64,000 nucleotides of DNA from a phage. This document shows positions 8,877 to 54,361 of the stretch, piece after piece. The stretch lies in the sequence record PX441839.1. One strand, 5' to 3'. A program made the translations under genes and the position numbers. The notes under the pieces were generated by a model that did not search any database, was not told where the DNA came from, and saw nothing but the letters and a program-made list of their open reading frames with translations. Position 1 is the stretch's first letter. Every line of letters begins with the position of its first letter.

Positions 8877-9020
8877 ATGAACCTGACTAACTTTAACCGC
8901 TACTACATCCGCGACGAACAAGCTAACGCTTTCGGTTATGACCGCACCGCTGAAGCCGCTGAAAAGCAACATAAAATTTTCATCCGTTGGATTGCAGACT
9001 ATAAAAAGGCCCGCGCTTAA
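8877..9020 (+). CDS. small protein (47 aa)
   Basis: ATG at 8877 after AAGAGGAG RBS; the listed start at 8796 lies inside the promoter. Confidence 0.4.
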   Translation: MNLTNFNRYYIRDEQANAFGYDRTAEAAEKQHKIFIRWIADYKKARA

Positions 9021-17659: not shown

Positions 17660-18201
17660 TATTTCCTAGCTCCGCTCTCAAATGCCCTTTTTGTTACCTT
17701 TGCCATAGCTTCGAGGTCTTCCATTGTCACTGTTGGGTGATTTTTCTCAAGGTATCCCTTTATTGCCCCAATAATGTCACTAAGTTCTTGCAGGGCCATC
17801 AGTTTGACACCTTGTTTCTCAGCATCCATGAATTCCTGCACCTCTTCCATCACTTTCCCTGAGGTCCCGTATGCATGTTTTTCTATATCTACAAGGTGGT
17901 AGCCTGGTGACTTTTTACTTGGACTTACCTTATCTCTTACTTTTACCCAAAACACCCCATTTCGAGTGTCGGTGCTAACAACTGTTCGGATGTAGATCCA
18001 TTCCCCAAGCTCCTCCTTCACTTTGAATCTGTGCCCTGGTTCAATGGTATCCATATCGATAATCTCATCGTGACTAATTTCATCAATGACCGACACAAGT
18101 ACGTTGGGAAGCAGTTTGCATTCATTTTCCATCAGCGATGCTGAAAGCATCACCTCCAGGGCACTCATTTCCATACCTATCTCCTCTTTTAATTTTTCCA
18201 A
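17659..18201 (-). CDS. MazG-like all-alpha NTP pyrophosphohydrolase domain protein (180 aa)
   Basis: C-terminal EEVQEFMDAEKQG ... LQELSDIIGAI matches the MazG acidic helical pattern; start overlaps the downstream gene. Confidence 0.45.
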   Translation of the reverse strand: MEKLKEEIGMEMSALEVMLSASLMENECKLLPNVLVSVIDEISHDEIIDMDTIEPGHRFKVKEELGEWIYIRTVVSTDTRNGVFWVKVRDKVSPSKKSPGYHLVDIEKHAYGTSGKVMEEVQEFMDAEKQGVKLMALQELSDIIGAIKGYLEKNHPTVTMEDLEAMAKVTKRAFESGARK

Positions 18202-19304
18202 GCCATATCTTGAACCTTAAGAATAACTTCTTCTGCTAACTTCTTGTCTGAATTATACGGCAACGAAGTAGACTTGTAAAGGACATTTCGAACGTACTCG
18301 TCCTTTCCCTCTGCCCACTCAAGAATCTCATCGAGAGTCTTCGATCCATTTCGGATTGCCAATAATTCATCAGCATCTTCACGGAACACATTGACTTCCC
18401 CTGTTGTGAGGATCTCTTCCGCCATTCGCATCAGGCGAACAAGGTGCATAGCGTGTTTTGTGTCGTAACCGAATTTAACCTCCAATTCATGGCGTGTGGC
18501 ATTACGGTTTTTCTTCCAATTCCAATAGTTCTTGTGCTTTTCTTTTGCCTGTTTGTGTTCTTCCCGCATGTACTTAACAAAGAACAGCGGAGGCTGGCGC
18601 TTAATACTGTCTGGGATCTCTTCATACACAACCTTCCTGATAGAACCATCTGGATTGAACATAGGTGGAACATTGTCCCGATGGTCAGGAACAACAGCAA
18701 AATGATCTGCACCAAGTGGAATCATTGAACAAACCCCAACCATGTTATTCAGTTTCCTCATGAAGTCCTCGTGCTTGAGCACAGGAACAGACAAATAACT
18801 TTGCACAAGTCTGAAAAACTCCAACTGACTTGGTGCTTTTTCTGGTTGCGGGTTGTTAATCCACTTATCGTGACCTCGGATACGCTTAAGTTGGCTCATT
18901 GCATACCCGCTAAATCTGTGCGCCACGTTGGAATTCAAAAAGGTATGAGCATTGTCCCGAAGAATATCAAATTCCGGCGTTCTGTACAGGATCTCTTGGT
19001 CCCTAGTGAATAGGGTCTCAATGATGTTTGGGTTCATATCCAGAAACAAACTCATGAACGTATTCAATTCATAAACTTTACCATCCTCTGCTCCAGGGAT
19101 GTTTAGTTCAGTTACCTTCTTGAAGGGTGTCCGCACAACACCCGGTTTTGCAACAAAGATACCTCGGATATCTGTATCACTCGTCGGAAGAGATGTACCG
19201 TAAGCCTTCGATCCTGACAAGTTTAGCATGACCACTTTTGAAACGTCTGGATGCTTTTCCAGACTTGCTACCATACTTAATACCTCTCCATTCGGAACAC
19301 ACAT
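18189..19304 (-). CDS. Pol-beta-superfamily nucleotidyltransferase (about 371 aa)
   Basis: hG[GS] ... [DE]h[DE]h signature LSGSKAYGTSLPTSDTDIRGIF; ATG at 19304 preceded by GGAGGAGG RBS. Confidence 0.6.
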   Translation of the reverse strand: MCVPNGEVLSMVASLEKHPDVSKVVMLNLSGSKAYGTSLPTSDTDIRGIFVAKPGVVRTPFKKVTELNIPGAEDGKVYELNTFMSLFLDMNPNIIETLFTRDQEILYRTPEFDILRDNAHTFLNSNVAHRFSGYAMSQLKRIRGHDKWINNPQPEKAPSQLEFFRLVQSYLSVPVLKHEDFMRKLNNMVGVCSMIPLGADHFAVVPDHRDNVPPMFNPDGSIRKVVYEEIPDSIKRQPPLFFVKYMREEHKQAKEKHKNYWNWKKNRNATRHELEVKFGYDTKHAMHLVRLMRMAEEILTTGEVNVFREDADELLAIRNGSKTLDEILEWAEGKDEYVRNVLYKSTSLPYNSDKKLAEEVILKVQDMAWKN

Positions 19305-19400
19305 GTTTACCTCCTCCAATTCGACCATCGTATAAATCACAGAGGCCACACCCTCTGCTTTTTAATTTTTTATAGTTAGAACAGTTCTCGCAACTACGTG

Positions 19401-20468: not shown

Positions 20469-20937
20469 CCTTTAAGCGAAGCTTTTTAATATTCACCAAA
20501 AGCTCTCGCTCACCCTCTGTAAAGTAACGGGTATCCCCATCTTCCGTGAGGTATGTAAATGGGGCATTACCCTCCTCGTCAAGTTTAGAGGAATACATAT
20601 ACTCTGGCAGTACAATACAGGCCGCAGTTAATGCACCATTCAAAGCATCCTCTGTTTCCTGGAAAAAGGAAGATGGCAGGTGCTTGTTCTTGTCGAAGAT
20701 GTCGATAAGGTCGAATATCTTCTGCTGATAACCACCATTAAGTACGATGATTGTCTTATCTGTGGATGCCCACTGTTTTGCCATCCTCACAGCAGCATGG
20801 CCTTGGTTTACCGCAGAGTTGTACTTATGCATAAGTTCAACAATGGCGTGAGCAGACTGAATACCTGCATGGATACCTGCGATATACTGATTAACAACAC
20901 AATACATACGGGTTGACATATTTCTCTCCTTAATCAT
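20461..20937 (-). CDS. putative peptidyl-tRNA hydrolase, PTH2-like (158 aa)
   Basis: MYCVVNQYIAGIHAGIQSAHAIVEL and QW...KTIIVL follow the PTH2 pattern (M.LVVR...G.AAQ.SHA / W...K.VV); sits directly before the CCA enzyme. Confidence 0.45.
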   Translation of the reverse strand: MIKERNMSTRMYCVVNQYIAGIHAGIQSAHAIVELMHKYNSAVNQGHAAVRMAKQWASTDKTIIVLNGGYQQKIFDLIDIFDKNKHLPSSFFQETEDALNGALTAACIVLPEYMYSSKLDEEGNAPFTYLTEDGDTRYFTEGERELLVNIKKLRLKGE

Positions 20938-22243
20938 TTAACCATTTTGGTGTATATGCGTATTGCAAATTACGAATATTCTTTTCTGTAATATCTGACT
21001 TAGCTTTTAGGATACCTCTTGCAACATAGCCTACTTTCAGACTCTTTACCTTTTGCTGGATAACCTCTGGTCGTCCTTTGAACTCCTCTGCGATCTCTCT
21101 GCTCTTTTTAGATATCTCTGACCTGTTTCTTACCAACTCCGCAACAGCACCGAGCAAGATATAAGGTTGATCATAGGCATCGTGAATTTTTGTAGGCCCT
21201 CGTCCACGAGCATCGCAAATACACGCCTCTACAAATTTCATTATAAACTCTTGGTCTTTCTCACCTCTCAACCGAGAAATTAAATCATATACCTTTTTCG
21301 GCCTCATGTCCAACACCCTGTGAAGTCGGGTATGATCGTCACATACCCTCCAAGCAAGGTCCATCCATTTGTTTGGAACTCCGAACCTGTCTCCCAACGA
21401 TTTTACGTAACCAAGTCCCTCAAACTCATGACCTCGTAGATGACCATGATCCCAGTACATAACCTTTCCAAGATCGTGGCACAATACTGCCCATTTCACC
21501 TCCGGTGCTGACTTAAGCCCTTGTGCGTAGTCCAAGCAAAGAAGGGTGTGTACATAGGCATCTCCTTCTGGGTGGTGAGCCTCAGGTTGCTTAACCCCTT
21601 TAAGATTATTTACCTCTGGCATTTCTCCAAGTTCGCACAAGGTGTCTATCATTATTGACGGTTTGTTCAAAGAAGATTGGTCTTCAAAACACTTACGGAT
21701 CTCCGCCATTTTTCTTTCTTTTGGGAGAGCCGCAAGGTTTTCCTTTGCTCGGTGTGCCAAAAGAACAGTGCTTGCTGCAACTTGGAAAGTTCCACCGTAC
21801 CTGGCGAACAATCTTGCCAGTCGGTAAATTCGCAAAGGGTCATCTCGTAATGTGTCACGGGAGACATGTCTAAGGACTTTCCTTTCTATGTCCTTTGCCC
21901 CATTAAAAGGATCAACATATTCTCCGGTTTCCAAATCTTTTGCAATCGCATTTATAGTAAGATCTCGTCTCTTTAAGTCTTCTTCGATTGTTACATCTGG
22001 GCTGAAAACTACCTCAAAATCATGGTATCCTGCTCCAGTTGATCGTTCGGTACGTGCCAAGGCGTACTCTTCCTTGGTTTCTGGGTGAAGATAAACAGGG
22101 AATGCAGCACCAACTTGCTCAAACCCCATTTCAATCATGTCCTCGTGGGTATATCCAACACAAACATAATCCTTATCTTTTGGCTCCAGACCCATCAGTT
22201 CGTCACGGACGGCACCTCCAACCAAGTAGATCTTCTTATTCAC
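20930..22243 (-). CDS. cca: tRNA nucleotidyltransferase (CCA-adding enzyme) with HD domain
   Basis: N-terminal LVGGAVRDELMG ... DKDYV head-domain motifs and a C-terminal HD-type region; 437 aa. Confidence 0.8.
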   Translation of the reverse strand: MNKKIYLVGGAVRDELMGLEPKDKDYVCVGYTHEDMIEMGFEQVGAAFPVYLHPETKEEYALARTERSTGAGYHDFEVVFSPDVTIEEDLKRRDLTINAIAKDLETGEYVDPFNGAKDIERKVLRHVSRDTLRDDPLRIYRLARLFARYGGTFQVAASTVLLAHRAKENLAALPKERKMAEIRKCFEDQSSLNKPSIMIDTLCELGEMPEVNNLKGVKQPEAHHPEGDAYVHTLLCLDYAQGLKSAPEVKWAVLCHDLGKVMYWDHGHLRGHEFEGLGYVKSLGDRFGVPNKWMDLAWRVCDDHTRLHRVLDMRPKKVYDLISRLRGEKDQEFIMKFVEACICDARGRGPTKIHDAYDQPYILLGAVAELVRNRSEISKKSREIAEEFKGRPEVIQQKVKSLKVGYVARGILKAKSDITEKNIRNLQYAYTPKWLND

Positions 22244-23091: not shown

Positions 23092-23607
23092 TTAACTTTT
23101 TGGTTTTGCCCAGTAAAACGGCGATTCAAGCTCCAGTCTTCCTTTTGGGTCCCAGATAAAGTAGCAATACTCAGCACCATCTGTTTTTCCATCATCTGTA
23201 AAAGATGGACGCTTAGAGAGGGTGATTAAGTGGTCAACTGGGTATTCTCCCCAGAAGTCGAACCGCTTCATGCTTCCAAGAAACCCTGCTCGAAGGAGCA
23301 TTATAACAACATCTGCATCTTTGTGGGCCTTCTCTACAAACTCCTGAGCCAAAGAATACGGAGGGTTTGTTATGATACAATCCACACGATTATACTCTGT
23401 GGTGAGATAATCCACACCTTCCCTGATCTCTCCCCACGCAGATCCTATCGGCATGTGGTTATAAAAACGCCCAGAGGCACGACACGGTTCCATGTATGTC
23501 CAATCTTTTCTGATAGGTACGATACTCAAGAGTGCATCAACTGCCCACTCAGGGGTCTCATACAAATCAAAAGCTTTTCGTTCCCCTTTTGGCTTCAATG
23601 CGGCCAT
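23092..23607 (-). CDS. DNA methyltransferase, probably N6-adenine (NPPY motif)
   Basis: DCIITNPPYS motif IV; 171 aa. Confidence 0.7.
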   Translation of the reverse strand: MAALKPKGERKAFDLYETPEWAVDALLSIVPIRKDWTYMEPCRASGRFYNHMPIGSAWGEIREGVDYLTTEYNRVDCIITNPPYSLAQEFVEKAHKDADVVIMLLRAGFLGSMKRFDFWGEYPVDHLITLSKRPSFTDDGKTDGAEYCYFIWDPKGRLELESPFYWAKPKS

Positions 23608-24467
23608 TACACCTTCTCCTTCAAACGCCGCACAATTTCTTGACGGATATACTCAGGACTATCATGGATAGACAGATAATTTATATCAAAAGCTTTTGCA
23701 ATCTCAATAAGCTCACTGGGCGTATACTCATCAAAATCTTTTGTGCTTAGTTTACCAAGAGAAAAGGTCTTCTTCTTTCCGTTATCCAAAGTTATGTCGA
23801 ACTCATCTCCTTTGTCAATCTCTTGAGTTGGGAATGGGAAAATTATGCTATCCGAAGCTTTAACTTCCTTTTTGCCATCCCCTAGTCGCGATCTGGCATC
23901 CTCTGCATTGAGATATACCTCACCCGCATGATCAAACAGTCGGCTCAACTCCTCGTCTGTCAGAATTTCAGAGTACAAATCATGAAATTGATTCTTGAAC
24001 TCCCGTGCATAAAAATCAACACGGGTTTTGATATTCGCAGAATCACCGCCCAGAGATAGTTGTGCATTGTGGAACATCAGATAGCAACCATCCTCAATCA
24101 CCCGCTCATGACCACTAAGGAAAATATTCACCGCTGCACTGGCAACCTCACCCACAGCAACAGTTTTCACCTTGGCCTTGCTTGCCTTGATCGCAGAGGT
24201 GTACATACTTGCGATAGAAAGGTATCCACCAGGGGAGGTGATATAAATTGTAATTGTGTCATGCTCACCTGCGTTACGGATCAGGTCCACAGGTTCAATA
24301 TGATTGGCTGGGTGGTCCCCAAGCTCTGTTAAGTGAATGCGCCAATCGTGGCGCTCCTTGGAACGAGACCAAATCATCTTTACATTTTCCGGCAGTAACT
24401 GATCACCCATTATCAAACCCCCTTCTCTAAGTCTTCCCGAATCCGCTGTGCGTTTTGAAGAATCCAC
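23607..24467 (-). CDS. ClpP-like serine protease (S14 family) with N- and C-terminal extensions
   Basis: ITSPGG ... GEVASAA ... MFHNAQ resembles the ClpP INSPGG / GxAAS / MIHQP core; 286 aa. Confidence 0.5.
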   Translation of the reverse strand: MDSSKRTADSGRLREGGLIMGDQLLPENVKMIWSRSKERHDWRIHLTELGDHPANHIEPVDLIRNAGEHDTITIYITSPGGYLSIASMYTSAIKASKAKVKTVAVGEVASAAVNIFLSGHERVIEDGCYLMFHNAQLSLGGDSANIKTRVDFYAREFKNQFHDLYSEILTDEELSRLFDHAGEVYLNAEDARSRLGDGKKEVKASDSIIFPFPTQEIDKGDEFDITLDNGKKKTFSLGKLSTKDFDEYTPSELIEIAKAFDINYLSIHDSPEYIRQEIVRRLKEKV

Positions 24468-42136: not shown

Positions 42137-42952
42137 TTAATATTTCTCCAGATTCGGTTCAAAGAAGGTGCAAGGCTTCATGATCTTACCTTTATCATCC
42201 TTAAACACAACACGGTTTCCGAACACCTCTCCACGGATACCTTTGTATCTACCTGCATGGTGCTTATTAAGAGATTCTGCCTCGATACTGATCATGTCAT
42301 CAACAGAAAGACCTCCCTTAACAACCCCATATCGAGAAGAAATGAATCCCTCTTTGAATTGTTCAATAGTTGGAATCTTTGACTCATTGGATGACAGAAC
42401 TTCCTCCAATACCGCCTCAATATCCAAATCCATATTGTGGAGAATTGTGCATATCGCACGGAAAGCGAAATGACTCTCCCCGAAACTAATGATCGATGAG
42501 GACAAAATACGAACAAGATCAACCAGAGAGTCGTGTGCCCACGTACCTGGGTCAAGGGCGATCTCTGAGTAATCAACGGCAGCATCAATTGCATCTTCAA
42601 TATTATCAAGAATCTCTGCGTCAACCTTAAGCTTCTTAAGGAAATCCCAGTAAGATACCACAACAAAAAGATCTGCGAGCGCGTCGATGGTTTCTTTCCG
42701 ATCTTTATTCAAAAGAGCATCTTTAAGCTCGTTAAGTTCCTCAACACAGAACGATTTTTGACGATCGATCATCTCTTCACTGTAGTCGTGGTTTTTTCGA
42801 GCGGTTAAGTTAAACTCGCGGACTCGTGAAAAAGCACTTTTTAAAATGTCTCGTTTTTCTTTTTTGGCAAAAGATTCAATAAAAGAATATTCTTGTGTCA
42901 CTTGATTCTCCTCTTCTTTGAAAGTAGGGCCATTATACATGACCAATTCCAT
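42137..42952 (-). CDS. hypothetical protein, possible MazG-like helical domain (271 aa)
   Basis: ELNELKDAL ... ETIDALADLFVVV resembles the MazG EExxE / ELGD pattern, weakly. Confidence 0.4.
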   Translation of the reverse strand: MELVMYNGPTFKEEENQVTQEYSFIESFAKKEKRDILKSAFSRVREFNLTARKNHDYSEEMIDRQKSFCVEELNELKDALLNKDRKETIDALADLFVVVSYWDFLKKLKVDAEILDNIEDAIDAAVDYSEIALDPGTWAHDSLVDLVRILSSSIISFGESHFAFRAICTILHNMDLDIEAVLEEVLSSNESKIPTIEQFKEGFISSRYGVVKGGLSVDDMISIEAESLNKHHAGRYKGIRGEVFGNRVVFKDDKGKIMKPCTFFEPNLEKY

Positions 42953-42955
42953 ATG

Positions 42956-43429
42956 TCAACGATCTTCGTAAACTTTCTTAGCTTCATCTCTCCGCAAGCT
43001 GTTACGGGAATCCCTCAATGCCTCCTTTTTCTTCTGCTCATCCTTCATACGGGCACTCACTATACTTCGAACGGTGTAACCGACAAGCTTTTCCTCTGTC
43101 CCATTCATCCAGTCGAGATCACCAACAAATATGAAGCTATCATCCCACCAATGTTGAATCCAAGTGTATTTCCCAGTTACAGGGTCGTACAAGGTGAAGT
43201 CGGTATAGCAACGACTATCTTCTTCAATCTTAACCTGGTCTTCATCACCCTGTTTGCAGTAAAAACCATCATGGATCTCGATACTACCACTCTTCACCAA
43301 TTTCACAATCTTTTTTGTAGGCTCCTTTATCTGTAACCAATCGTGGAACCATGCCATCCCACAAAACAAGCTGAACAATACAAAAACGAAAACCAGAAAC
43401 GGATCAGACATTATCATTCTCCTCTGCAA
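42956..43429 (-). CDS. membrane-anchored protein (157 aa)
   Basis: N-terminal transmembrane helix. Confidence 0.5.
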   Translation of the reverse strand: MQRRMIMSDPFLVFVFVLFSLFCGMAWFHDWLQIKEPTKKIVKLVKSGSIEIHDGFYCKQGDEDQVKIEEDSRCYTDFTLYDPVTGKYTWIQHWWDDSFIFVGDLDWMNGTEEKLVGYTVRSIVSARMKDEQKKKEALRDSRNSLRRDEAKKVYEDR

Positions 43430-44822
43430 TAGTCATTAACAGGTCGAGTAAAGAGTCAGAGGCTGCGATAATCTCAGGAAGAGAGTTTGCCTGGCTCTTG
43501 TCTCTACGGATCTCTACAAACTTATAGTTCAGTCGAGGAAGGAACAGTGATGCAAGCTCCTTGGTCTCAGACTTCGTAATGTCGTTAGCCTTTCCTGTTA
43601 CAATCTGCCCAATAAAATATTCCCGAGGTTTCTTACGCAGCGCGTCTGTCAAACCGGAGCCAATACCAACCTCTAAAAGTCCATCACGGGATCGGCAAAT
43701 AAGAGCACCGACCAAGTTGGGGTTCTTCTTGTGTGGAATAACATCAACAACTTCGACCTCAAAATCAAACTCATTCTTAAGTTTGATCCCTTTCTTTGTC
43801 TTATTGTCTCCCCAAGGCATAGCTGCCTCTTTGATAACAGTACCTTCTTTCTTCTGCTTACGCATCTCCACAAAGTGTTCGATGGCTTCCCGCATATTGC
43901 TAATGCGACGTCCAGTGATCATCCTGAAATTATCAGGATTGCCAACACTGTTCACAACAATATGGGCAACCAGTCGGCGGTCTTCATAACGAGCTTTGCT
44001 CTTTCTGGCGACATACTCGTCCATGTCTACGCAATCCCAAACCACCAGGCGAACAAGTGCAGGATCGATACTCTCAGGATCTTGGTTAAGGTATCCATTT
44101 CCGATCTCCCGTGGTTGTACTCCGTTAGGATATGAATTGTCGATAACCAAGGCTTCTCCATGAAGAACATAAGGTCCATTCTCACGGGCCTTAAACTTAA
44201 GGCCATTCTCCACGTCAGGTACGCACCGGAAATTTAATTCCTTGCCAGATCGTGATCGATAAATCACCTGTTCAGGCCACACCATAATGTCCGCATACAA
44301 CCCATCCATTTTCTCATCTGAAAATGCACCATCGTAGTTAAACTTACGAAGCAGATCTGGTTTGAATAGCGTGTAGCTTTGATAAGGTGGCTCAGTAATA
44401 AGGTCCTTCCAAACCTTGTTTGTAAGCGTTGTCTGGATACCACACTCAAGATCACGGTTAATAACCTTTACCAGGGTCTCAGGTTCTTCGCATAAACCAA
44501 CCAACTGATCCATGTATGCCTTAGCATCATCTCCGGTATACCGACGACACGCAATGTTGTCAATTAAGTCCTTAATCGAGTCGATCAATGGTCGATTACC
44601 ACAAACCCCGTTTGATGAACAGACACTCTTGAAATTCCGAACAAAAAAGTTCAACTCTTTCGAGTAGGCTACACGAAAAACTTCACGAAGTACATCGTTG
44701 TCTTCATTCTCACGAAGAATGGCCTCTTTCTCTTTTGTAGATCGGGTGTTGGACAGCTTGTTTAAAATTTCAGTTACAGTCATTCGTATCTCCTTTTGGT
44801 GGAATATTGCCGCTGTTGTCAA
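43404..44822 (-). CDS. ATP-dependent DNA ligase (an RNA ligase is not excluded)
   Basis: 472 aa; KMDGLY (motif I KxDG), EGTVIK (motif IV) and a lysine-rich motif V region. Confidence 0.55.
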   Translation of the reverse strand: MTTAAIFHQKEIRMTVTEILNKLSNTRSTKEKEAILRENEDNDVLREVFRVAYSKELNFFVRNFKSVCSSNGVCGNRPLIDSIKDLIDNIACRRYTGDDAKAYMDQLVGLCEEPETLVKVINRDLECGIQTTLTNKVWKDLITEPPYQSYTLFKPDLLRKFNYDGAFSDEKMDGLYADIMVWPEQVIYRSRSGKELNFRCVPDVENGLKFKARENGPYVLHGEALVIDNSYPNGVQPREIGNGYLNQDPESIDPALVRLVVWDCVDMDEYVARKSKARYEDRRLVAHIVVNSVGNPDNFRMITGRRISNMREAIEHFVEMRKQKKEGTVIKEAAMPWGDNKTKKGIKLKNEFDFEVEVVDVIPHKKNPNLVGALICRSRDGLLEVGIGSGLTDALRKKPREYFIGQIVTGKANDITKSETKELASLFLPRLNYKFVEIRRDKSQANSLPEIIAASDSLLDLLMTIAEENDNV

Positions 44823-47099: not shown

Positions 47100-47380
47100 A
47101 GTGCTGTGCAGTATACACCCTGTAGATCAGATGTCAAGACTACCAATTCAAAAAATTTTCAGATAATCTATGTATAAGATCTAAAGATCTATTATAAAAA
47201 GTTATAAGATCTTATTGTTTTTATAATTATTATGAATATAATGAATAATAATTATGGTTTTTATAATTTATGAGTGAAACGAATAAATTATAAGATCAAA
47301 TGGGGTTCTTATGAGCGTAGCGAATGGGTATAATCTTAATATAAGTATTGTGTGCCTTTTGAGGCAACGACGTAGGTTGT
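47100..47380. other. AT-rich divergent control region with TATAAGATC repeats (candidate origin / promoter hub)
   Basis: tataagatc at 47174, 47203 and 47288; agatct three times; long A/T runs; lies between divergently transcribed blocks. Confidence 0.4.
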
Positions 47381-47392
47381 GTGGAGGTGAGG

Positions 47393-47809
47393 ATGATTTT
47401 TCAGTTTGGTAACAGTTCAGTGGAGATTTCAGAAGATAGCTTCATGCAGATTCCTACCCACTGGGTAATGAACTTAAGCGGAGATGACTTAAAGAGGGCT
47501 TGCCTTCTTCGGTGGAGGTTCACATTCTTTGCTGATACGGGACTTTTCCCAGATGCATCCCTATGCTTCTATGAGTCTCAGCAGTCATTGTGTGACCTGT
47601 TTGGGATGTCAAAGTCTAGCCGGACAAAGGTGAGTGCTTGTCTAAAGAGGTTGGAGGCTGCTGGGGTAATATTTATACGCAGGGGCAAGTCAAGGGAGAG
47701 TGGGGAGTTGAAGCCACGGCATTACATTGTCCCCAATGACTCACTGCTTATTGAGAAGTACGGTATACGACCAGACTTGTGGGATGATAAGGAAATAATT
47801 GAAAAGTAA
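47393..47809 (+). CDS. putative HTH DNA-binding protein (138 aa)
   Basis: ATG at 47393 after GGAGGTGAGG RBS; helix-turn-helix-like segment GMSKSSRTKVSACLKRLEAAGVI. Confidence 0.45.
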   Translation: MIFQFGNSSVEISEDSFMQIPTHWVMNLSGDDLKRACLLRWRFTFFADTGLFPDASLCFYESQQSLCDLFGMSKSSRTKVSACLKRLEAAGVIFIRRGKSRESGELKPRHYIVPNDSLLIEKYGIRPDLWDDKEIIEK

Positions 47810-47867: not shown

Positions 47868-48158
47868 ATGAATATTCAAGAACAGGTTAAAATAACTTTC
47901 GAAGACCTTGTGGAACTACATAAGAAACGAAAATATCAAAAGGGCCGAGAAAAGAAGGCAATGGAGGATGTGGTATTCTTTTCTAAAGATGGTCATGGAC
48001 TTTCCAAGAAAGAGGCAAACAGGAAGGTTGATGCAGCGTGGGCTACACAACGGGACGCTGTGAACATTGTGTCAGGTATTGATAAGCAGATTGAATATGA
48101 ACTGAATGCCATAGGGCAGATTATCAACTTTGTTGCGGAAAAGGAGAGTGATAAATGA
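47868..48158 (+). CDS. hypothetical protein (96 aa)
   Basis: ATG at 47868 after GAGAGGAGAGAAG RBS. Confidence 0.5.
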   Translation: MNIQEQVKITFEDLVELHKKRKYQKGREKKAMEDVVFFSKDGHGLSKKEANRKVDAAWATQRDAVNIVSGIDKQIEYELNAIGQIINFVAEKESDK

Positions 48159-49069
48159 TTTCTTTACATCTCGATAACTTTAAAAGGGTTAAGCTTGAGT
48201 TTATGACGTTCAGCGGTGGAGAGCGTAACGTCCGTATAGGTGGACTGGATGTCGAAAAAGATGGTGTTCTTGAGTTTGCTGGATATGGGGAGGTTGACCA
48301 TCTCTCTCAACGTAAGTGGGAAAATTATCGTGTAACAGCACATATTCAAAGCTCAGATGATATCATGGATCTGTTACTTCTAAAGGATGCCATTGATCGT
48401 GTGGGCAATGGATGTTTGCGACGTGTATACTCAATCCTGCATCTTCCGTATCTCCCATATGCTCGACAAGACCGTGCAATGGTAAACGGGGAGGCGATCT
48501 CTGTTGTCGTTATGGCAAACCTGATTAACTCTCTTGAGTTTGATGCCGTGTGGATTGATGACCCGCATTCTGATGTTGGTCCGTCGCATATAAAAAACGC
48601 CGTAATTACCCCTCAGCATGAGCTTTTGCTGGACATGTGTAACAAAGATGATGTTCTTTCCGATGGAACAATCATTGTTGCACCTGATGCAGGTGCCATG
48701 AAAAAGGCAAGCAAGTTGGCTGAACTCGCTGATTTACCTCTCGGGACTGGTGGTAAACACAGGGATGTCAAGACAGGTAAGATTACAGGAACAACTTACA
48801 CAGGGCCAGATGTAAACGGTAAACGATGCCTGTTGGTAGACGATATTGCGGATGGCGCTGCCACATTTGTGTGTCTTGCAGAGAAACTAAAATCCCTGGG
48901 TGCAAAACAGGTTGATCTGTATGTAACGCACGGCATTTTCTCAAAAGGGATTGATGACCTTGAGCATATCGATAAGATTTATTCGGCATACCCCTGGAGA
49001 AAGAACGTTAAGTGGAAAAATGGAAAAGGTAAGCTAAATACGGTTGACATCGTAAGCTGGTTCGAGTAA
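48155..49069 (+). CDS. ribose-phosphate pyrophosphokinase (Prs)-like; candidate ADP-ribose pyrophosphate synthetase (NARP1 Adps)
   Basis: LPYLPYARQDR and LLVDDIADGAATF match the Prs motifs; immediately upstream of the NAMPT-like gene. Confidence 0.8.
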   Translation: MISLHLDNFKRVKLEFMTFSGGERNVRIGGLDVEKDGVLEFAGYGEVDHLSQRKWENYRVTAHIQSSDDIMDLLLLKDAIDRVGNGCLRRVYSILHLPYLPYARQDRAMVNGEAISVVVMANLINSLEFDAVWIDDPHSDVGPSHIKNAVITPQHELLLDMCNKDDVLSDGTIIVAPDAGAMKKASKLAELADLPLGTGGKHRDVKTGKITGTTYTGPDVNGKRCLLVDDIADGAATFVCLAEKLKSLGAKQVDLYVTHGIFSKGIDDLEHIDKIYSAYPWRKNVKWKNGKGKLNTVDIVSWFE

Positions 49070-49125
49070 AGTACATTTTATCGGGAGGCGTGTTGCCTCC
49101 CACATACAACGAAGGAGAGTTACAT

Positions 49126-50916
49126 ATGCTGAGTCAAAATAGCCCTATTCTTTTTGCTGATTGGTACAAGCCATCCCACATCTCCATGTATCATGGTAAA
49201 TCAGAGATCGTCCAAGATAACATGACACCACGTAATCACAAACATTACACTCACTTTTCTGACAATGATAAGCGTGTAATGATGGCTGGCCTTCAAGGAT
49301 TCATCAAATGGTTCCTTATCGAAAAGTTCAACAAGGATTTCTTCTCCCTGTCCAAAGAGGAGGCTCTGGCAGAGTTTAAAGAGATCTGTGACTTATCTAT
49401 TGGACCTGGTAAAGTTGAAACATGGGGATTCGAAAAGCTTCACGACCTTGGCTACCTGCCAATTGAAATTCGTGCTTTACCAGAAGGTACTTTGTGCCCG
49501 GTACAGGTTCCACTGTTCACTATTCAGAACACGCACCCTGACTTCTACTGGTTGCCTAACTATTTGGAATCTGTGGTATCTTCTGAAACATGGAAGACTA
49601 TCACCACGGCAACTACGTTCTGGCAGTATCGTAAACTGTCCGAGAAGTTCGCTGCACTGACCTGTGACGACAACAGTCACGTACCGTTCCAAAACCACTG
49701 CTTCGCCTATCGCGGACAGGCTGGTACGCACGATGCAGCGCAATCTGAGTTTGGTCAACTGATCAACTCTATGGGTACAGACACCATTCCGGCAATCCTG
49801 TATGCAAATAATTATTACTGGATGAAGGGTAAGTTTGTTGCAGGGTCAATTCCAGCATCTGAACATTCTGTTGCCACCACCAACATTGGGTTCATCGTTG
49901 GTCGTTTACGCTCAGAAAATCCAGAAATGTCTCTGGACGATCTCCGTTTCCATGCAGAGGTTGAGTTCCTTAAGCGTTACATTACGGAAATTTTCCCAAC
50001 TGGGCTTGTTTCTTATGTTGGTGACAGCTACGATTGGTATCGTCTAATTCGACATGGGGCCGAGGCTCTGAAAGAGGAAATCTTAGCTCGTGATGGAAAA
50101 CTTGTTTGGCGACCTGACTCTGGTGTTCCAGAGGACATTATTTGTGGGACTGTTGACTGGAGCAAGATTCAGGATTTAACTGATGCAGGTTCCCTTGAAT
50201 ATGCGGGTGAGTGGGCACTAGAAACTGCTGTTGAATCCGTTCAAGAAGATACACCTCACGGTGAGCAGGGTGACTGGGACGTATCGAGCCTGTTCTTGTA
50301 CGAAGGTGCTCTGTACCGTATGCGTGGAGAAATTGAATGGAATCGTTATGACAAGCAGTATTACTATGTCGATGGTTCACGAGTAATCTCTGTGGAGCCA
50401 GTGGAACTGGATGATGTGCAGAAAGGTGCCATTGAAGTGCAATGGGAAATTTTCGGTGGAACTGTGAACAGTAAAGGGTACAAGGTTCTTGACCCACACG
50501 TAGGTCTGATTTACGGTGACTCAATTTCTGTTGAACGTGCTAACACTATCTACAAGCGACTTGAGGCCAAAGGATTTGCATCAAGTAACATTGTTCTCGG
50601 TGTTGGTTCCTACACTGCACAGTTCGTTACACGAGACAGTCTCGGAATGGCAGTCAAGGCAACTGGAGCAATTATTGATGGTGAGCAGATCATGGTTGTT
50701 AAGGAGCCAAAGACAGATATTGGTAAGAAGTCAGCCAAAGGGTTCCTGAAAGTTGTTCGTAATAGTGAAGGTGAGTTAGAGCTTGTCGATAACCTTCAAC
50801 TTGACCAGGTGGATGATGCAGACAATGAATTACGAACTGTATTCAAGGATGGTGTCTTGGTTGTTGACGAGACTCTTGAAGAAATTCGTAACCGCGCCGC
50901 TTCAAACCTTAAGTAA
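49126..50916 (+). CDS. nicotinamide phosphoribosyltransferase (NAMPT/NadV)-like; candidate nicotinamide-ADPR transferase (NARP1 Namat)
   Basis: N-terminal SPILFADWYKPSH matches the NAMPT start (N.IL.TDSYK.TH); about 596 aa; ATG at 49126 after GAAGGAGAG RBS. Confidence 0.8.
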   Translation: MLSQNSPILFADWYKPSHISMYHGKSEIVQDNMTPRNHKHYTHFSDNDKRVMMAGLQGFIKWFLIEKFNKDFFSLSKEEALAEFKEICDLSIGPGKVETWGFEKLHDLGYLPIEIRALPEGTLCPVQVPLFTIQNTHPDFYWLPNYLESVVSSETWKTITTATTFWQYRKLSEKFAALTCDDNSHVPFQNHCFAYRGQAGTHDAAQSEFGQLINSMGTDTIPAILYANNYYWMKGKFVAGSIPASEHSVATTNIGFIVGRLRSENPEMSLDDLRFHAEVEFLKRYITEIFPTGLVSYVGDSYDWYRLIRHGAEALKEEILARDGKLVWRPDSGVPEDIICGTVDWSKIQDLTDAGSLEYAGEWALETAVESVQEDTPHGEQGDWDVSSLFLYEGALYRMRGEIEWNRYDKQYYYVDGSRVISVEPVELDDVQKGAIEVQWEIFGGTVNSKGYKVLDPHVGLIYGDSISVERANTIYKRLEAKGFASSNIVLGVGSYTAQFVTRDSLGMAVKATGAIIDGEQIMVVKEPKTDIGKKSAKGFLKVVRNSEGELELVDNLQLDQVDDADNELRTVFKDGVLVVDETLEEIRNRAASNLK

Positions 50917-50924
50917 ATAAACAT

Positions 50925-50947
50925 ACCGCCCTTTTGGGCGGTTTTTC
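50925..50947 (+). terminator. rho-independent terminator after the NAMPT-like gene
   Basis: accgccc-tttt-gggcggt followed by ttttt. Confidence 0.6.
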
Positions 50948-52138: not shown

Positions 52139-52173
52139 TCTTAATACATAGCCCGTAAGGAATTGCGGGATTG

Positions 52174-52249
52174 CCGATTTAGCTCAGTTGGTAGAGCGCT
52201 TCACTTGTAATGATGATGTCGCAGGTTCGAGTCCTGCAATCGGCACCAG
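52174..52249 (+). tRNA. tRNA-Thr (anticodon UGU)
   Basis: Manual cloverleaf: acceptor gccgatt/aatcggc, D-arm gctc-agttggta-gagc, T-arm gcagg-ttcgagt-cctgc, CCA encoded; one U-U mismatch in the anticodon stem. Confidence 0.7.
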
Positions 52250-52254
52250 ATAAG

Positions 52255-52328
52255 GCCCAATAGCTCACTGGTGAGAGCCAACCCCTCATAAGGGTTAGGG
52301 CGGGGATCGTAACCCCGGTGGGCCACCA
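52255..52328 (+). tRNA. tRNA-Met (anticodon CAU; initiator, elongator or Ile-lysidine not distinguished)
   Basis: Acceptor ggcccaa/gtgggcc, anticodon arm aaccc-ctcataa-gggtt, CCA encoded. Confidence 0.75.
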
Positions 52329-52347
52329 ACCAAAGAGAGAATTTAGC

Positions 52348-52426
52348 GCGGGTGTATCTCATCCGTCTTCTAAACGGACGTTAACCGAGTAATTGGAGTA
52401 TGGGGGTTCGAATCCCTCCACCCGCG
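52348..52426 (+). tRNA. atypical tRNA-like gene with anticodon-type hairpin UCU (Arg?)
   Basis: Canonical T-arm ggggg-ttcgaat-ccctc and acceptor gcgggtg/cacccgc, but no D-arm, a 23-nt extra segment, no CCA, and the acceptor extends to a perfect 16-bp stem (52339-52354 / 52419-52434). Confidence 0.4.
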
Positions 52427-52450
52427 CTAAATTCTTTTGAGGTGTAAAAA

Positions 52451-52966
52451 TTGCTAAACTTGAAAAATCAAAATATAGATAAAGGCACGGGATATTTATA
52501 CGTGTACGATCCAAGTCACCCAATGGCAAATAAGTCTGGAAAGGTTTATGTTCACAGGTATGTTGCAGAGACGGGGTTTGGTATAAAACTAACACCTGAC
52601 CTGATAGTTCACCACAAGGATGAGAATAAGCTAAACAACGAGCTAACAAATCTCGAAGTTATGACTTATTCTGAACATGCCCGTCACCACCACGGGGCGG
52701 ATTTTGTAGAATGTGTATGCAAGACCTGTGGCAATGTAACTTTGAGGAGGCCCTCGGAAGTTGTATCATTTTGTTCACACAAGTGCTCAACAACATTCAG
52801 AAGGAAATTTGAAATCTCTCCTCAAGAGTTGCAGGATTTGGTTTGTAACTACCCAGTTAGTGTTATTGCAAAGATGTTTGGGGTTAGTGATACAGCAATA
52901 CACAAGAAATGTAAAACCCTAGGGATTAAAAAGATGCCGAAAGGATTCTTTTTAAGACTCCCTTGA
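52451..52966 (+). CDS. HNH homing endonuclease
   Basis: YVHRYVAE ... IVHHKDENKLNNELTNLEVMTYSEHARHH is a classic HNH motif; C-terminal Cys cluster and HTH-like region. Confidence 0.7.
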   Translation: MLNLKNQNIDKGTGYLYVYDPSHPMANKSGKVYVHRYVAETGFGIKLTPDLIVHHKDENKLNNELTNLEVMTYSEHARHHHGADFVECVCKTCGNVTLRRPSEVVSFCSHKCSTTFRRKFEISPQELQDLVCNYPVSVIAKMFGVSDTAIHKKCKTLGIKKMPKGFFLRLP

Positions 52967-52998
52967 CATAGGTAATTGATCCTGATAAGATAATTACA

Positions 52999-53397
52999 TT
53001 GTTTCATTTCGGGATCGACAATATGGCAAAAGCTGAGATCGTAACCCGTAAGCGTGGACGGCCTTCGAAAGAAGAAAGCACAGCCATTGCTACTGAAAAG
53101 GCAATTCTTGAATATCGCCTTAAAGTGGCGATGTTATTACCTACCGCTGTTGATACCCTTAAAGGTCTGTTAACGTCAGGCTCTGAAAAAGTTAAAGAGG
53201 GTACTGCAAAATTCCTGATCAATGAGGCTAAAGAGGTGTTTAACATCTACGTCGCAGAAGATAATCAGGACAGTGAAGCAGGTGGTACAGTATCTGCAAA
53301 CTCACAGACCCACGCTGGATCGTCTGATGAGATTAAAAACATTATGCCTCTTACTACGGAAATCCGTGAGTACAAGATGGCAGAAGGTGAAGATTAA
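52999..53397 (+). CDS. hypothetical protein with AT-hook-like RKRGRPSK (about 125-132 aa)
   Basis: Six-frame ORF; terminator follows. Confidence 0.45.
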   Translation: MFHFGIDNMAKAEIVTRKRGRPSKEESTAIATEKAILEYRLKVAMLLPTAVDTLKGLLTSGSEKVKEGTAKFLINEAKEVFNIYVAEDNQDSEAGGTVSANSQTHAGSSDEIKNIMPLTTEIREYKMAEGED

Positions 53398-53428
53398 GAC
53401 CCTTCGGGGTCTTTGAGTTTTCTTTTGA
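53398..53428 (+). terminator. rho-independent terminator
   Basis: gaccc-ttcg-gggtc followed by tttgagttttctttt. Confidence 0.5.
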
Positions 53429-53457
53429 CGATTATTTTCGTACAAAAGAGAATTTAA

Positions 53458-53544
53458 GCCAGGTTATACCGTAGGGGTAGCGGAGGAGACTGTAAATCTC
53501 TGGTCATTGCGACTCGGGTGGTTCGACGCCATCACCTGGCACCA
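53458..53544 (+). tRNA. tRNA-Tyr (anticodon GUA), type II
   Basis: Acceptor gccaggt/acctggc, anticodon arm ggaga-ctgtaaa-tctct, long variable arm, CCA encoded. Confidence 0.7.
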
Positions 53545-53549
53545 AATAT

Positions 53550-53639
53550 GGAGAGTTGGCAGAGCGGCTGAATGCACCTGACTTGAAATCAGGCGACCGT
53601 TAACTCGGTCCGTGGGTTCAAATCCTACGCTCTCCGCCA
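53550..53639 (+). tRNA. tRNA-Ser (anticodon UGA), type II
   Basis: Tracks E. coli tRNA-Ser: ggagagt-tg-gcagagcggctgaatgc ... cctga-cttgaaa-tcagg ... gtggg-ttcaaat-cctac ... gctctcc-g-cca. Confidence 0.85.
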
Positions 53640-53720
53640 AATATCGCCCCTTATATAAAAGAACACCTGCGCGGCTGGAAAAACCCACTCAACAGTTCTT
53701 GAAAAGGGGCAACAATTTAC

Positions 53721-53798
53721 GGATCATTAGCTACAATTGGTTAGAGCGGCTCACTGTTAATGAGACGGTTCGTGGTTCAAGTCCACGATGATCCGCCA
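53721..53798 (+). tRNA. tRNA-Asn (anticodon GUU)
   Basis: Acceptor ggatcat/atgatcc, anticodon loop ctgttaa, T-arm cgtgg-ttcaagt-ccacg, CCA encoded. Confidence 0.8.
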
Positions 53799-53805
53799 AA
53801 CAATA

Positions 53806-53950
53806 GAAGGGTAACTTAAAGGCGGGTGTCCTGCCACTGGCCTCCAAAACCAGTCGTAAGGGGTTAGATTCCTCACTCTTCTGCCAAGTCGGGGTGTGCG
53901 CCAAATAAGAGCGGGTTAGCAACTGTGTTGTAGATTAGTCTACCACCCCA
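53806..53950 (+). ncRNA. degenerate tRNA-like sequences / possible small stable RNAs within the tRNA cluster
   Basis: Hairpins actgg-cctccaaaa-ccagt and gtaga-ttag-tctac plus tRNA-like termini (agaaggg ... ctcttct-g-cca), but no canonical cloverleaf. Confidence 0.3.
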
Positions 53951-53960
53951 CACAATAAGA

Positions 53961-54036
53961 AGTCCTATAGTTTCAGCGGTTAAAATACTCGCCTGTCACG
54001 CGAGAGTCACGGGTTCGAATCCCGTTAGGACTGCCA
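53961..54036 (+). tRNA. tRNA-Asp (anticodon GUC)
   Basis: Acceptor agtccta/taggact, anticodon arm ctcgc-ctgtcac-gcgag, T-arm acggg-ttcgaat-cccgt, CCA encoded. Confidence 0.8.
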
Positions 54037-54043
54037 TTTCTGA

Positions 54044-54119
54044 TGGAGATTAGCTCAGTAGGTAGAGCAAGCGACCGATAATCGCTGGGTCACTGGTTCA
54101 AGTCCAGTATCTCCAACCA
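54044..54119 (+). tRNA. tRNA-Ile (anticodon GAU), with unusual C at position 33
   Basis: Acceptor tggagat/atctcca, D-arm gctc-agtaggta-gagc, anticodon arm agcga-ccgataa-tcgct, T-arm actgg-ttcaagt-ccagt, CCA encoded. Confidence 0.65.
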
Positions 54120-54124
54120 AATAC

Positions 54125-54201
54125 CTCCGTGTAGCTCAGTCTGGTAGAGCGATTGCTTTGGGAGCAATAGGTCCAACGTTCGAGTCGTTGTACGGAGACC
54201 A
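54125..54201 (+). tRNA. tRNA-Pro (anticodon UGG)
   Basis: Acceptor ctccgtg/tacggag, anticodon arm attgc-tttggga-gcaat, T-arm caacg-ttcgagt-cgttg, CCA encoded. Confidence 0.85.
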
Positions 54202-54204
54202 AAT

Positions 54205-54279
54205 TGGGGATTAGCCAAGCGGTAAGGCACGAGGCTTTGATCCTTGTATGCGGAGGTTCGAATCCTCCATCCCCAGCCA
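54205..54279 (+). tRNA. tRNA-Gln (anticodon UUG)
   Basis: Acceptor tggggat/atcccca, anticodon loop ctttgat, T-arm ggagg-ttcgaat-cctcc, CCA encoded. Confidence 0.8.
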
Positions 54280-54284
54280 AATAA

Positions 54285-54361
54285 GCGTCCTTAGTGTCAG
54301 TGGTCTAACACTCCATCCTTCCAAGTTGGAACCACGGGTTCGAATCCCGTAGGACGCTCCA
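54285..54361 (+). tRNA. tRNA-Gly (anticodon UCC)
   Basis: Acceptor gcgtcct/aggacgc, anticodon loop cttccaa, T-arm acggg-ttcgaat-cccgt, CCA encoded. Confidence 0.8.

Follow-up and report, generated by a model that had tools for sequence, protein, structure and literature searches.

A predicted NARP1 gene pair in a Vequintavirinae phage and a domain inserted in its Namat homologue

The gene pair and its source phage

A stretch of phage DNA of 64,000 nucleotides (sequence record PX441839.1), hereafter called the window, carries two genes that lie head to tail on the plus strand, the first of the phosphoribosylpyrophosphate synthetase (Prs) family at 48155-49069 and the second of the nicotinamide phosphoribosyltransferase (NAMPT) family at 49126-50916. 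An original prediction, made from the letters of the sequence, had proposed that this pair is NARP1, an anti-defence pathway that rebuilds nicotinamide adenine dinucleotide (NAD+), which was described in 2024 and is covered by DefenseFinder-based detection. Both open reading frames (ORF A and ORF B below) are present on that strand. The motifs quoted for them were found as well, LPYLPYARQDR and VDDIADGAATF both in the 304-aa ORF A and ILFADWYKPSH in the frame downstream of it, and the family matches are far beyond chance. For ORF A these were Pfam PF00156, PF14572 and PF13793, TIGR01251 (1.8e-37) and phrog_619 (1.2e-83), and for ORF B PF04095 (6e-26), NF006629 (2.7e-139) and phrog_448 (1.5e-189).

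Across its whole 2762 bp the locus shows 97.1% nucleotide identity to Salmonella phage SSBI34 (Vequintavirinae, 141 kb), and lower-scoring matches were obtained in Klebsiella (Mydovirus) and Cronobacter phages. The source of the window is a Vequintavirinae phage, and the window represents 64 kb of a genome of roughly 141 kb. The proteins encoded by genes 79 and 80 of SSBI34 (MZ520832; QYC52498.1 and QYC52499.1) are 97.7% and 98.5% identical to those of the window, and the pair has the same neighbours, intergenic hairpin and terminator in the two phages. The differences are a few amino-acid substitutions and an indel of 1 nt in the intergenic hairpin. In GenBank the SSBI34 genes are named ribose-phosphate diphosphokinase and nicotinate phosphoribosyltransferase.

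The frame of the second gene had been listed from GTG 49090, which lies inside the hairpin. The true start of namat is almost certainly ATG 49126, which follows a Shine-Dalgarno sequence; the same start is annotated in SSBI34 and used in the published table of these proteins. Counted from this codon, namat begins 56 nt past the stop codon of adps on the same strand, within the distance of ten genes in which a Namat homologue, as a rule the next gene, is sought for NARP1. The genes and the two regions on which the assignment of the second one depends are:

48155-49069, plus strand: adps, homologue of ADP-ribose pyrophosphate synthetase (Prs family, Adps clade), 304 aa; from profile, tree and motifs
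49126-50916, plus strand: namat, homologue of nicotinamide ADP-ribose transferase (NAMPT family, Namat clade), 596 aa; from profile, tree and fold
49231-49266, plus strand: selectivity-clamp loop (SCL) region, T-P-R-N-H-K-H-Y-T-H-F-S, aligned to R40 of SPbetaL1 and to K-W of Bas63
50605-50637, plus strand: region of the clamp-helix motif termed SCH, from the alignment; motif definition from PMC12774641

According to Osterman et al. (bioRxiv 10.1101/2024.02.11.579819), phage pairs of a Prs-like and a Nampt-like gene are not a module for phosphoribosyl pyrophosphate (PRPP) and nicotinamide mononucleotide (NMN). In that study the purified Adps of Bacillus phage SPbetaL1 converted ADP-ribose (ADPR) and ATP to ADPR-pyrophosphate (ADPR-PP), and its Namat converted ADPR-PP and nicotinamide to NAD+, with ADPR-PP preferred to PRPP. 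Moreover, the pair of Escherichia phage Bas63 was able to overcome SIR2-HerA even when the host was pncC nadR, and ADPR-PP appeared in infected cells. NARP1 was found in 859 phage genomes (4.3%), with Namat next to 97% of the Adps-clade genes. The pair of ICP1, NrsAB, has also been reported as a functional NAD+-regenerating system. The SSBI34 genes appear in the tables of Osterman et al., MZ520832_00079 (gene 79) in the Prs/Adps Table S1 with the entry 'Namat within 10 genes: Yes' and MZ520832_00080 (gene 80) in the Namat Table S2 as 'Adps-associated'. Table S1 holds ordinary bacterial Prs too, so that a listing alone proves no clade, and membership was therefore tested independently.

Clade membership of the two proteins

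The Adps reference set consisted of the proteins of Bas63, SPbetaL1 and FADO, which are functionally validated, of ICP1 and of seven other phages. Five Prs served as controls, those of E. coli and human (PRPS1, with a sequence identical to PDB 8DBC) and three bacterial ones from the published table. On a profile made from the eleven phage Adps, with ORF A and SSBI34 left out, ORF A obtained 285 bits, as opposed to 90 bits on the Prs profile. When scored by leave-one-out, the three validated Adps gave 223-236 bits on the Adps profile and 59-88 bits on the Prs profile, whereas the E. coli and human Prs gave 121-125 bits on the former and 392-414 bits on the latter. In a neighbour-joining tree ORF A fell within the phage Adps clade (bootstrap of about 95%) as the sister of phiTE_193.

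A number of sequence characters also separated all 13 phage Adps from all 5 Prs, a comparison set which is small. These are D/E-P-H-S where Prs have D-L-H-A, (A/F)PD.GA where they have SPD.G(G/R), a flexible loop reading K.R(D/N)..T(G/N).I, a ribose-5-phosphate loop without the Thr of the Prs motif DT.GT, and the loss of the N-terminal helix together with the final ~30 residues. ORF A presents every Adps state (DPHS, APDAGA, KHRDVKTGKI and DDIADGAAT), and the variant of its loop, DGAAT, is shared with the functional Adps of ICP1, which has DGAA(S/T). Its K201 aligns with K162 of SPbetaL1 Adps, a Lys which is invariant in 18/18 sequences compared and whose replacement in the K162A mutant renders the SPbetaL1 enzyme inactive.

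With housekeeping Prs, represented by E. coli Prs and human PRPS1, ORF A shares the fold family, YARQDR, the DD in the PRPP loop and, in the flexible loop, the catalytic Lys/Arg, but the identity is 21-26%, DLHA is changed to DPHS and DT.GT to DGAAT, and both termini of Prs are gone. In addition, ORF A stays under every NCBIfam equivalog cut-off for Prs by a factor of about three or more (104 bits versus a cut-off of 297 for the best full-length model), and the only model that it passes is the broad subfamily model TIGR01251 (128.9 versus 113). By these sequence comparisons ORF A belongs to the Adps clade and not to housekeeping Prs.

The feature that discriminates Namat from Nampt was defined in the paper on the SPbetaL1 Namat structure (PMC12774641; PDB 9W5X/9W5W), in which mutation of the clamp abolished NAD+ synthesis and left NMN synthesis in place. 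ORF B scored 629 bits on the Namat profile versus 281 bits on the Nampt profile, and the split between the two groups received 100% bootstrap. Its best relative in the PDB was SPbetaL1 Namat 9W5X/9W5W both by sequence (E 3e-115; human NAMPT 1e-49) and by fold, with a TM of 0.93 on the target for an AlphaFold2 model of pLDDT 93. The comparison by profile and structure with Adps and Namat on one side and Prs and NadV on the other, which had been put forward with the original prediction, thus places ORF A in the Adps clade and ORF B nearest to SPbetaL1 Namat.

The SCH of ORF B reads GSYTAQFVTRD. Its positions 3 and 7 are taken by Y and F, the two clamp aromatics of the helix (Y496 and F500), while the phi positions hold T/Q/V and position 5 holds Ala. 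The pattern GS[YF][TS].Q..T[RC]D was found in 12/12 Adps-associated homologues, whereas none of the 5 Nampt controls has the Namat motif, the reading there being GG[GQ]LLQ. These controls were human NAMPT, with its sequence verified against PDB 2GVG, and four phage proteins of Nampt type without an Adps partner (KVP40-like, GAP161, KM2 and phiN3). In the SCL, where an Arg, Lys or Tyr as third residue supplies the stacking residue (PMC12774641), the third residue of ORF B is Lys, and His and Tyr come next. The Nampt-like catalytic core is kept (F193, D219, R329 and H247, equivalent to F189, D215, R306 and the catalytic His of SPbetaL1), and D12, Y14, R196, D331, G464, D465 and R503 are conserved as well, matching the core reference residues D13, Y15, F189, R192, D215, the catalytic His, R306, D308, G360, D361 and R399. 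Judged by its sequence, ORF B is a Namat rather than a Nampt.

The proteins of NARP2 (NadV with NatV of KVP40), human NAMPT and NadV of H. ducreyi share with ORF B the type II phosphoribosyltransferase fold and the catalytic residues. They differ from it in having GG[GQ]LLQ (GAQTYQR in H. ducreyi) instead of the aromatic clamp, a turn of 4 aa instead of the long insert described below, and an Nmnat partner. NadV of H. ducreyi, whose crystal structures with NMN and with nicotinamide are PDB 9KE8/9KEO, is much nearer to the phage Namats than human NAMPT is, and its clamp helix GAQTYQRNTRD has a Namat-like spacing without the two aromatics. Its sequence fits with the clamp being decisive, and the protein may be a useful natural control for the function of the clamp.

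The gene order and the clades of both proteins are also those of Bas63 (JohannRWettstein; bas63_0079 Adps and bas63_0080 Namat), a Felixounavirus of a different phage family whose pair was validated in vivo against SIR2-HerA. Bas63 Namat shares with ORF B the SCH (GSYTYQYMTRD versus GSYTAQFVTRD), the Lys at position 3 of the SCL and a long insert at the same site, although identity is 35% for Adps and 40% for Namat and the Bas63 insert, of 93 aa, is unrelated in sequence and has no EWNR-DK-YYY domain. SPbetaL1 has the same catalytic Lys in Adps (K162, equivalent to K201) and the same core and clamp residues in Namat, at 29% and 45% identity, respectively. Its Namat of 491 aa has a loop of 16 aa where ORF B has 97 aa, and its SCL uses Arg40 directly where ORF B has K-H-Y.

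Predicted pathway and its alternatives

The mechanism is modelled, by homology, on the systems of SPbetaL1, Bas63, FADO and ICP1. A host NADase effector (SIR2-HerA/Nezha, DSR1/2, Thoeris ThsA, SEFIR or others) would cut NAD+ into ADPR and nicotinamide, after which Adps would use ATP to pyrophosphorylate the free ribose of ADPR and form ADPR-PP. Namat would then swap the pyrophosphate of ADPR-PP for nicotinamide and yield NAD+ directly, without an NMN intermediate and without an adenylyltransferase. The preference of this enzyme for ADPR-PP over PRPP would arise because the adenine clamp, composed in ORF B of Y496, F500 and the K-H-Y loop, narrows the entrance of the pocket. By analogy with these systems, both reactions and the anti-defence phenotype are predicted for the phage of the window.

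The absence of an NMN adenylyltransferase next to the pair, which the original prediction had pointed out, holds for a wider region. No such domain was detected by hmmscan in ten flanking ORFs, of which two lie upstream on the same strand, six downstream and two across the strand switch. A tblastn search of the 64 kb with two queries, a putative NatV of a KVP40-like phage and the phiN3 cytidyltransferase, gave no NatV/Nmnat match (best E 1.4). The window also encodes two nucleotidyltransferases, of the RlaP and the CCA-adding type, in which no CTP_transf_like domain was found. Since no NatV/Nmnat homologue lies in the 64 kb, the system is taken not to be NARP2, in which the NAMPT homologue would act as NadV together with a phage NMN adenylyltransferase/Nudix protein (NatV) encoded elsewhere in the genome. 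A distant Nmnat gene is conceivable, as the window covers 64 kb of ~141 kb. However, ORF B groups with the Adps-associated Namats and not with the Nampts of KVP40-like phage, GAP161, KM2 and phiN3 (100% bootstrap), its SSBI34 orthologue is labelled 'Adps-associated' and not 'Nmnat-associated' in the published genome-wide table, and a Prs-like partner has no role in NARP2. We regard a pathway of this type as very improbable here.

Two NARP1 variants with a further component, NARP1-AP (Adps-Adpp-Namat, Vibrio phage Gary) and the RyDEP NARP1 locus of mycobacteriophage DyoEdafos, have the same Adps/Namat core as the window. Unlike in these loci, neither a Macro-domain phosphatase (Adpp) nor a RyR-domain glycosidase was detected by hmmscan in the ten flanking ORFs, the published screen having used the more sensitive HHpred. 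The locus was therefore classed as minimal two-gene NARP1.

Canonical salvage is the reading that was given to such pairs before 2024. The Prs-like enzyme would make PRPP and the NAMPT-like enzyme NMN, and NadR or PncC/NadD of the host would complete NAD+. It accords with the Pfam, NCBIfam and PHROG names of the two families (Prs and nicotinamide/nicotinate phosphoribosyltransferase) and with the closeness to ORF B of the nearest relative outside the Namats, H. ducreyi NadV (E 1e-102). Against this, ORF A is far below the Prs equivalog cut-offs and has neither the Thr of the ribose-5-phosphate loop nor the two terminal helices, and in H. ducreyi NadV positions 3 and 7 of the SCH are non-aromatic, in contrast to the Y and F of ORF B. 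Moreover, the SPbetaL1 homologue yielded no Prs-type product in the Prs-assay condition while it converted ADPR and ATP to ADPR-PP, and Bas63 beat SIR2-HerA even in the pncC nadR double mutant. Canonical salvage is accordingly judged improbable, if somewhat less so than a NARP2-type pathway.

The presence and order of the two genes, their clade membership and their conserved catalytic and clamp residues are observed in the window. The SSBI34 listing, the Adps profile and tree, the clamp motif of Namat and the lack of an Nmnat favour, at the level of sequence, NARP1 over canonical Prs plus NadV, as had been proposed. The pair is thus predicted to be a functional NARP1 module with a probability of roughly 0.88, the remainder being shared by canonical or mixed activity and an effect of the insert in ORF B. 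Several points speak against this reading. Identity to the characterised enzymes is 28-35% for Adps and 40-45% for Namat, and the case for the window phage, as for SSBI34, is one of homology. Namat enzymes also turn PRPP into NMN in vitro, which makes some canonical activity possible. The consensus residue at SCH position 5 is 'most often aromatic', whereas ORF B has Ala there, and the fourth residue of its SCL is His and not Trp as in Bas63. Finally, the insert of ORF B is seen in no functional Namat compared and may alter the activity.

The NARP1 pair as such is already known and effectively catalogued, and the practical value of the assignment is one of annotation, as GenBank still names such genes Prs and nicotinate phosphoribosyltransferase. 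Following the published logic, the phage should resist NAD+ depletion of the SIR2, TIR and SEFIR types, which are defences that release ADPR and nicotinamide. It is predicted to fail against aRES, which releases ADPR-1''-phosphate, because no Adpp phosphatase was detected near the pair.

The inserted domain, RNA elements and neighbouring genes

The domain carried by this Namat is the sole detail of the locus that had not been reported previously. The two nested features are:

50146-50418, plus strand: insertion after the RPDSGVP..ICG strand, aa 341-431 of ORF B; from the alignment
50188-50400, plus strand: discrete domain of ~70 aa within the insertion, aa 355-425, with the motif EWNRYDKQYYYVDG / EWNRYDKQYYYVDGS; from predicted fold and homologues

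At this site Nampt has 4 residues, forming a turn, the Namats of SPbetaL1, FADO and Stab22 (phages of Gram-positive hosts) have 16 and that of ICP1 has 17, while ORF B has 97 and the other Namats compared from phages of Gram-negative hosts have 51-97. The loop of SPbetaL1 Namat is GDPEAKDELVRKG. In the structure model the insert is predicted as an autonomous, confidently folded domain. A profile search with it retrieved free-standing proteins of 109-146 aa with the pattern EWNR[YH]DK.YYY[VI]DG (E down to 4.7e-18), and profile-profile comparison with this free-standing family gave a probability of 99.5% (E 2.2e-23). That first search did not list Namat proteins, which were found by an exhaustive HMMER search of 1.84 billion representatives that returned 222 clusters at E ≤1e-3. 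The best 150 of these 222 clusters included 105 proteins of at most 200 aa, in which the domain is C-terminal, and 27 proteins longer than 500 aa, mostly with the domain at roughly residues 320-475; those of the long carriers that were scanned against Pfam were of the NAPRTase family. Two further matches, a 2233-aa protein with Muc_B2 repeats and a 950-aa repeat protein, look like repeat artefacts and were set aside.

The free-standing homologues were found mostly as proteins of ~110 aa on phage-like contigs. Two of them were scanned and matched no Pfam family, and PHROGs contain the domain solely within a Namat fragment family. In isolated phages it occurs inside the Namat genes of Salmonella, Pseudomonas, Bacillus and Vibrio phages (in Bacillus phage vB_BcoS-136 at the same insertion site as in ORF B), and Delftia phage PhiW-14 encodes it as a separate gene (gp210). 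It is absent from the five functional Namats compared, among them those of Bas63, SPbetaL1, FADO and ICP1. Within the SSBI34-like group the insert evolves faster than the Namat core, and in sister lineages unrelated inserts replace it at the same site. The loci of the free-standing homologues are runs of small unannotated ORFs, with no recurring partner among the contexts examined. In a single case, at 706-1795 of locus L023 (metagenomic contig ERR14949457_31586), a homologue lies two genes 3' of a NADAR-domain gene, and another was found near a TROVE-domain gene. The insert was also considered as the aRES inhibitor aRad1 and this was rejected, the published aRad1a sequence being unrelated and the motif absent from the tables of that paper. 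A literature search for the motif strings returned nothing relevant.

It is conceivable, though doubtful, that this Namat combines the NARP1 core with a second activity through the EWNR-DK-YYY insert, such as binding of Adps to channel the labile ADPR-PP or the binding or inhibition of a host factor. Its autonomous fold, its homology to small free-standing phage proteins, its recurrence in the Namats of Pseudomonas, Bacillus and Vibrio phages that are unrelated and its fast evolution and exchange can all be read in that sense. More generally, a role as functional accessory module of NAD+-centred counter-defence, for example through binding to Adps, ADPR-derived molecules or a host NADase, seems rather unlikely, and the only pointer to a functional link is that the domain recurs together with Namat. 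A neutral passenger insertion in a permissive loop is more likely, because the insertion site accepts many passengers. The domain is thus a modest lead; if functional, it would represent a new small protein family tied to the NAD+ arms race and a case of a small free-standing domain built into an anti-defence enzyme.

NARP1 genes of relatives are frequent landing sites for selfish elements, while the copy in the window is uninterrupted. In Pectobacterium phage phiTE an HNH endonuclease gene splits namat and a second one lies between adps and namat, a position that is also occupied by an HNH gene in Escherichia phage ekra. Some metagenomic Namats, 885-899 aa long, have a large additional segment, which in one case gave a weak match to LAGLIDADG.

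The remaining features of the locus are the RNA elements and the gene directly upstream of adps:

47868-48158, plus strand: ORF of 96 aa, context and not a defined NARP1 component; its stop overlaps the adps start codon (ATGA, 48155-48158)
49083-49101, plus strand: intercistronic RNA hairpin with a GC-rich stem of 7 bp and a loop of 5 nt, GGGAGGC-GUGUU-GCCUCCC
49112-49119, plus strand: Shine-Dalgarno sequence AAGGAGAG for namat, read from the sequence, 6-8 nt 5' of ATG 49126
50925-50947, plus strand: terminator-like hairpin ACCGCCC-UUUU-GGGCGGU (hairpin proper 50925-50942), followed by a U run

The hairpin that had been placed between the two genes was found there with its 7-bp stem, and the 65-nt intergenic stretch has a folding z of -2.3. 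Lacking a U tract, it is no intrinsic terminator; it may be an element for processing or stability, or may modulate the translation of namat. The stem of SSBI34 (8929-8948 in the SSBI34 locus, L001) has two substitutions, A to G and C to U, which keep the pairing as G-U wobbles, hinting, from the two sequences compared, that the hairpin is maintained. The terminator predicted 3' of the pair corresponds to the GC-rich, 7-bp terminator-like hairpin 9 nt past the namat stop codon (z = -3.0) with its T run; its stem is palindromic and can therefore fold on either strand. A scan for sigma-70 promoters gave 12 sites, versus 9.2 +/- 2.5 in shuffles, and no promoter is claimed. An internal site at 49044-49072 was not taken as evidence of a promoter.

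The pair probably closes a longer transcription unit, which runs rightward and starts past a strand switch near 47100-47390. This unit is opened by a 138-aa protein (phrog_8453, 47393-47809) with weak winged-helix matches and a distant similarity to the N-terminus of replication initiators. The 96-aa ORF is probably co-transcribed with adps, and its ATGA overlap with the adps start suggests translational coupling. It matched no Pfam or PHROG family and has no similarity to BIS47_76, which occupies this position in Klebsiella phage BIS47; the gene directly upstream of adps thus differs among related phages.

Elsewhere the window encodes ribonucleotide reductase, thymidylate synthase, exonucleases, DNA ligase and the large terminase subunit, together with RNA-repair-type nucleotidyltransferases and a tRNA cluster. 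The latter (52173-54361) consists of ten genes (Thr, Met, Tyr, Ser, Asn, Asp, Ile, Pro, Gln and Gly), with two insertions between tRNA-Met and tRNA-Tyr, a gene for an HNH endonuclease (52451-52966) and an ORF that is AT-hook-like (52999-53397). The RNA-repair-type genes lie on the minus strand, one (18189-19349) encoding a nucleotidyltransferase of the RlaP family and the other (20930-22243) a CCA-adding enzyme that has an HD domain. Other genes of that strand, which like these two encode no NMN adenylyltransferase, specify a ClpP-like protease (23607-24467), a pyrophosphohydrolase similar to MazG/PRA-PH (42137-42952) and, at 43404-44822, an ATP-dependent DNA ligase.

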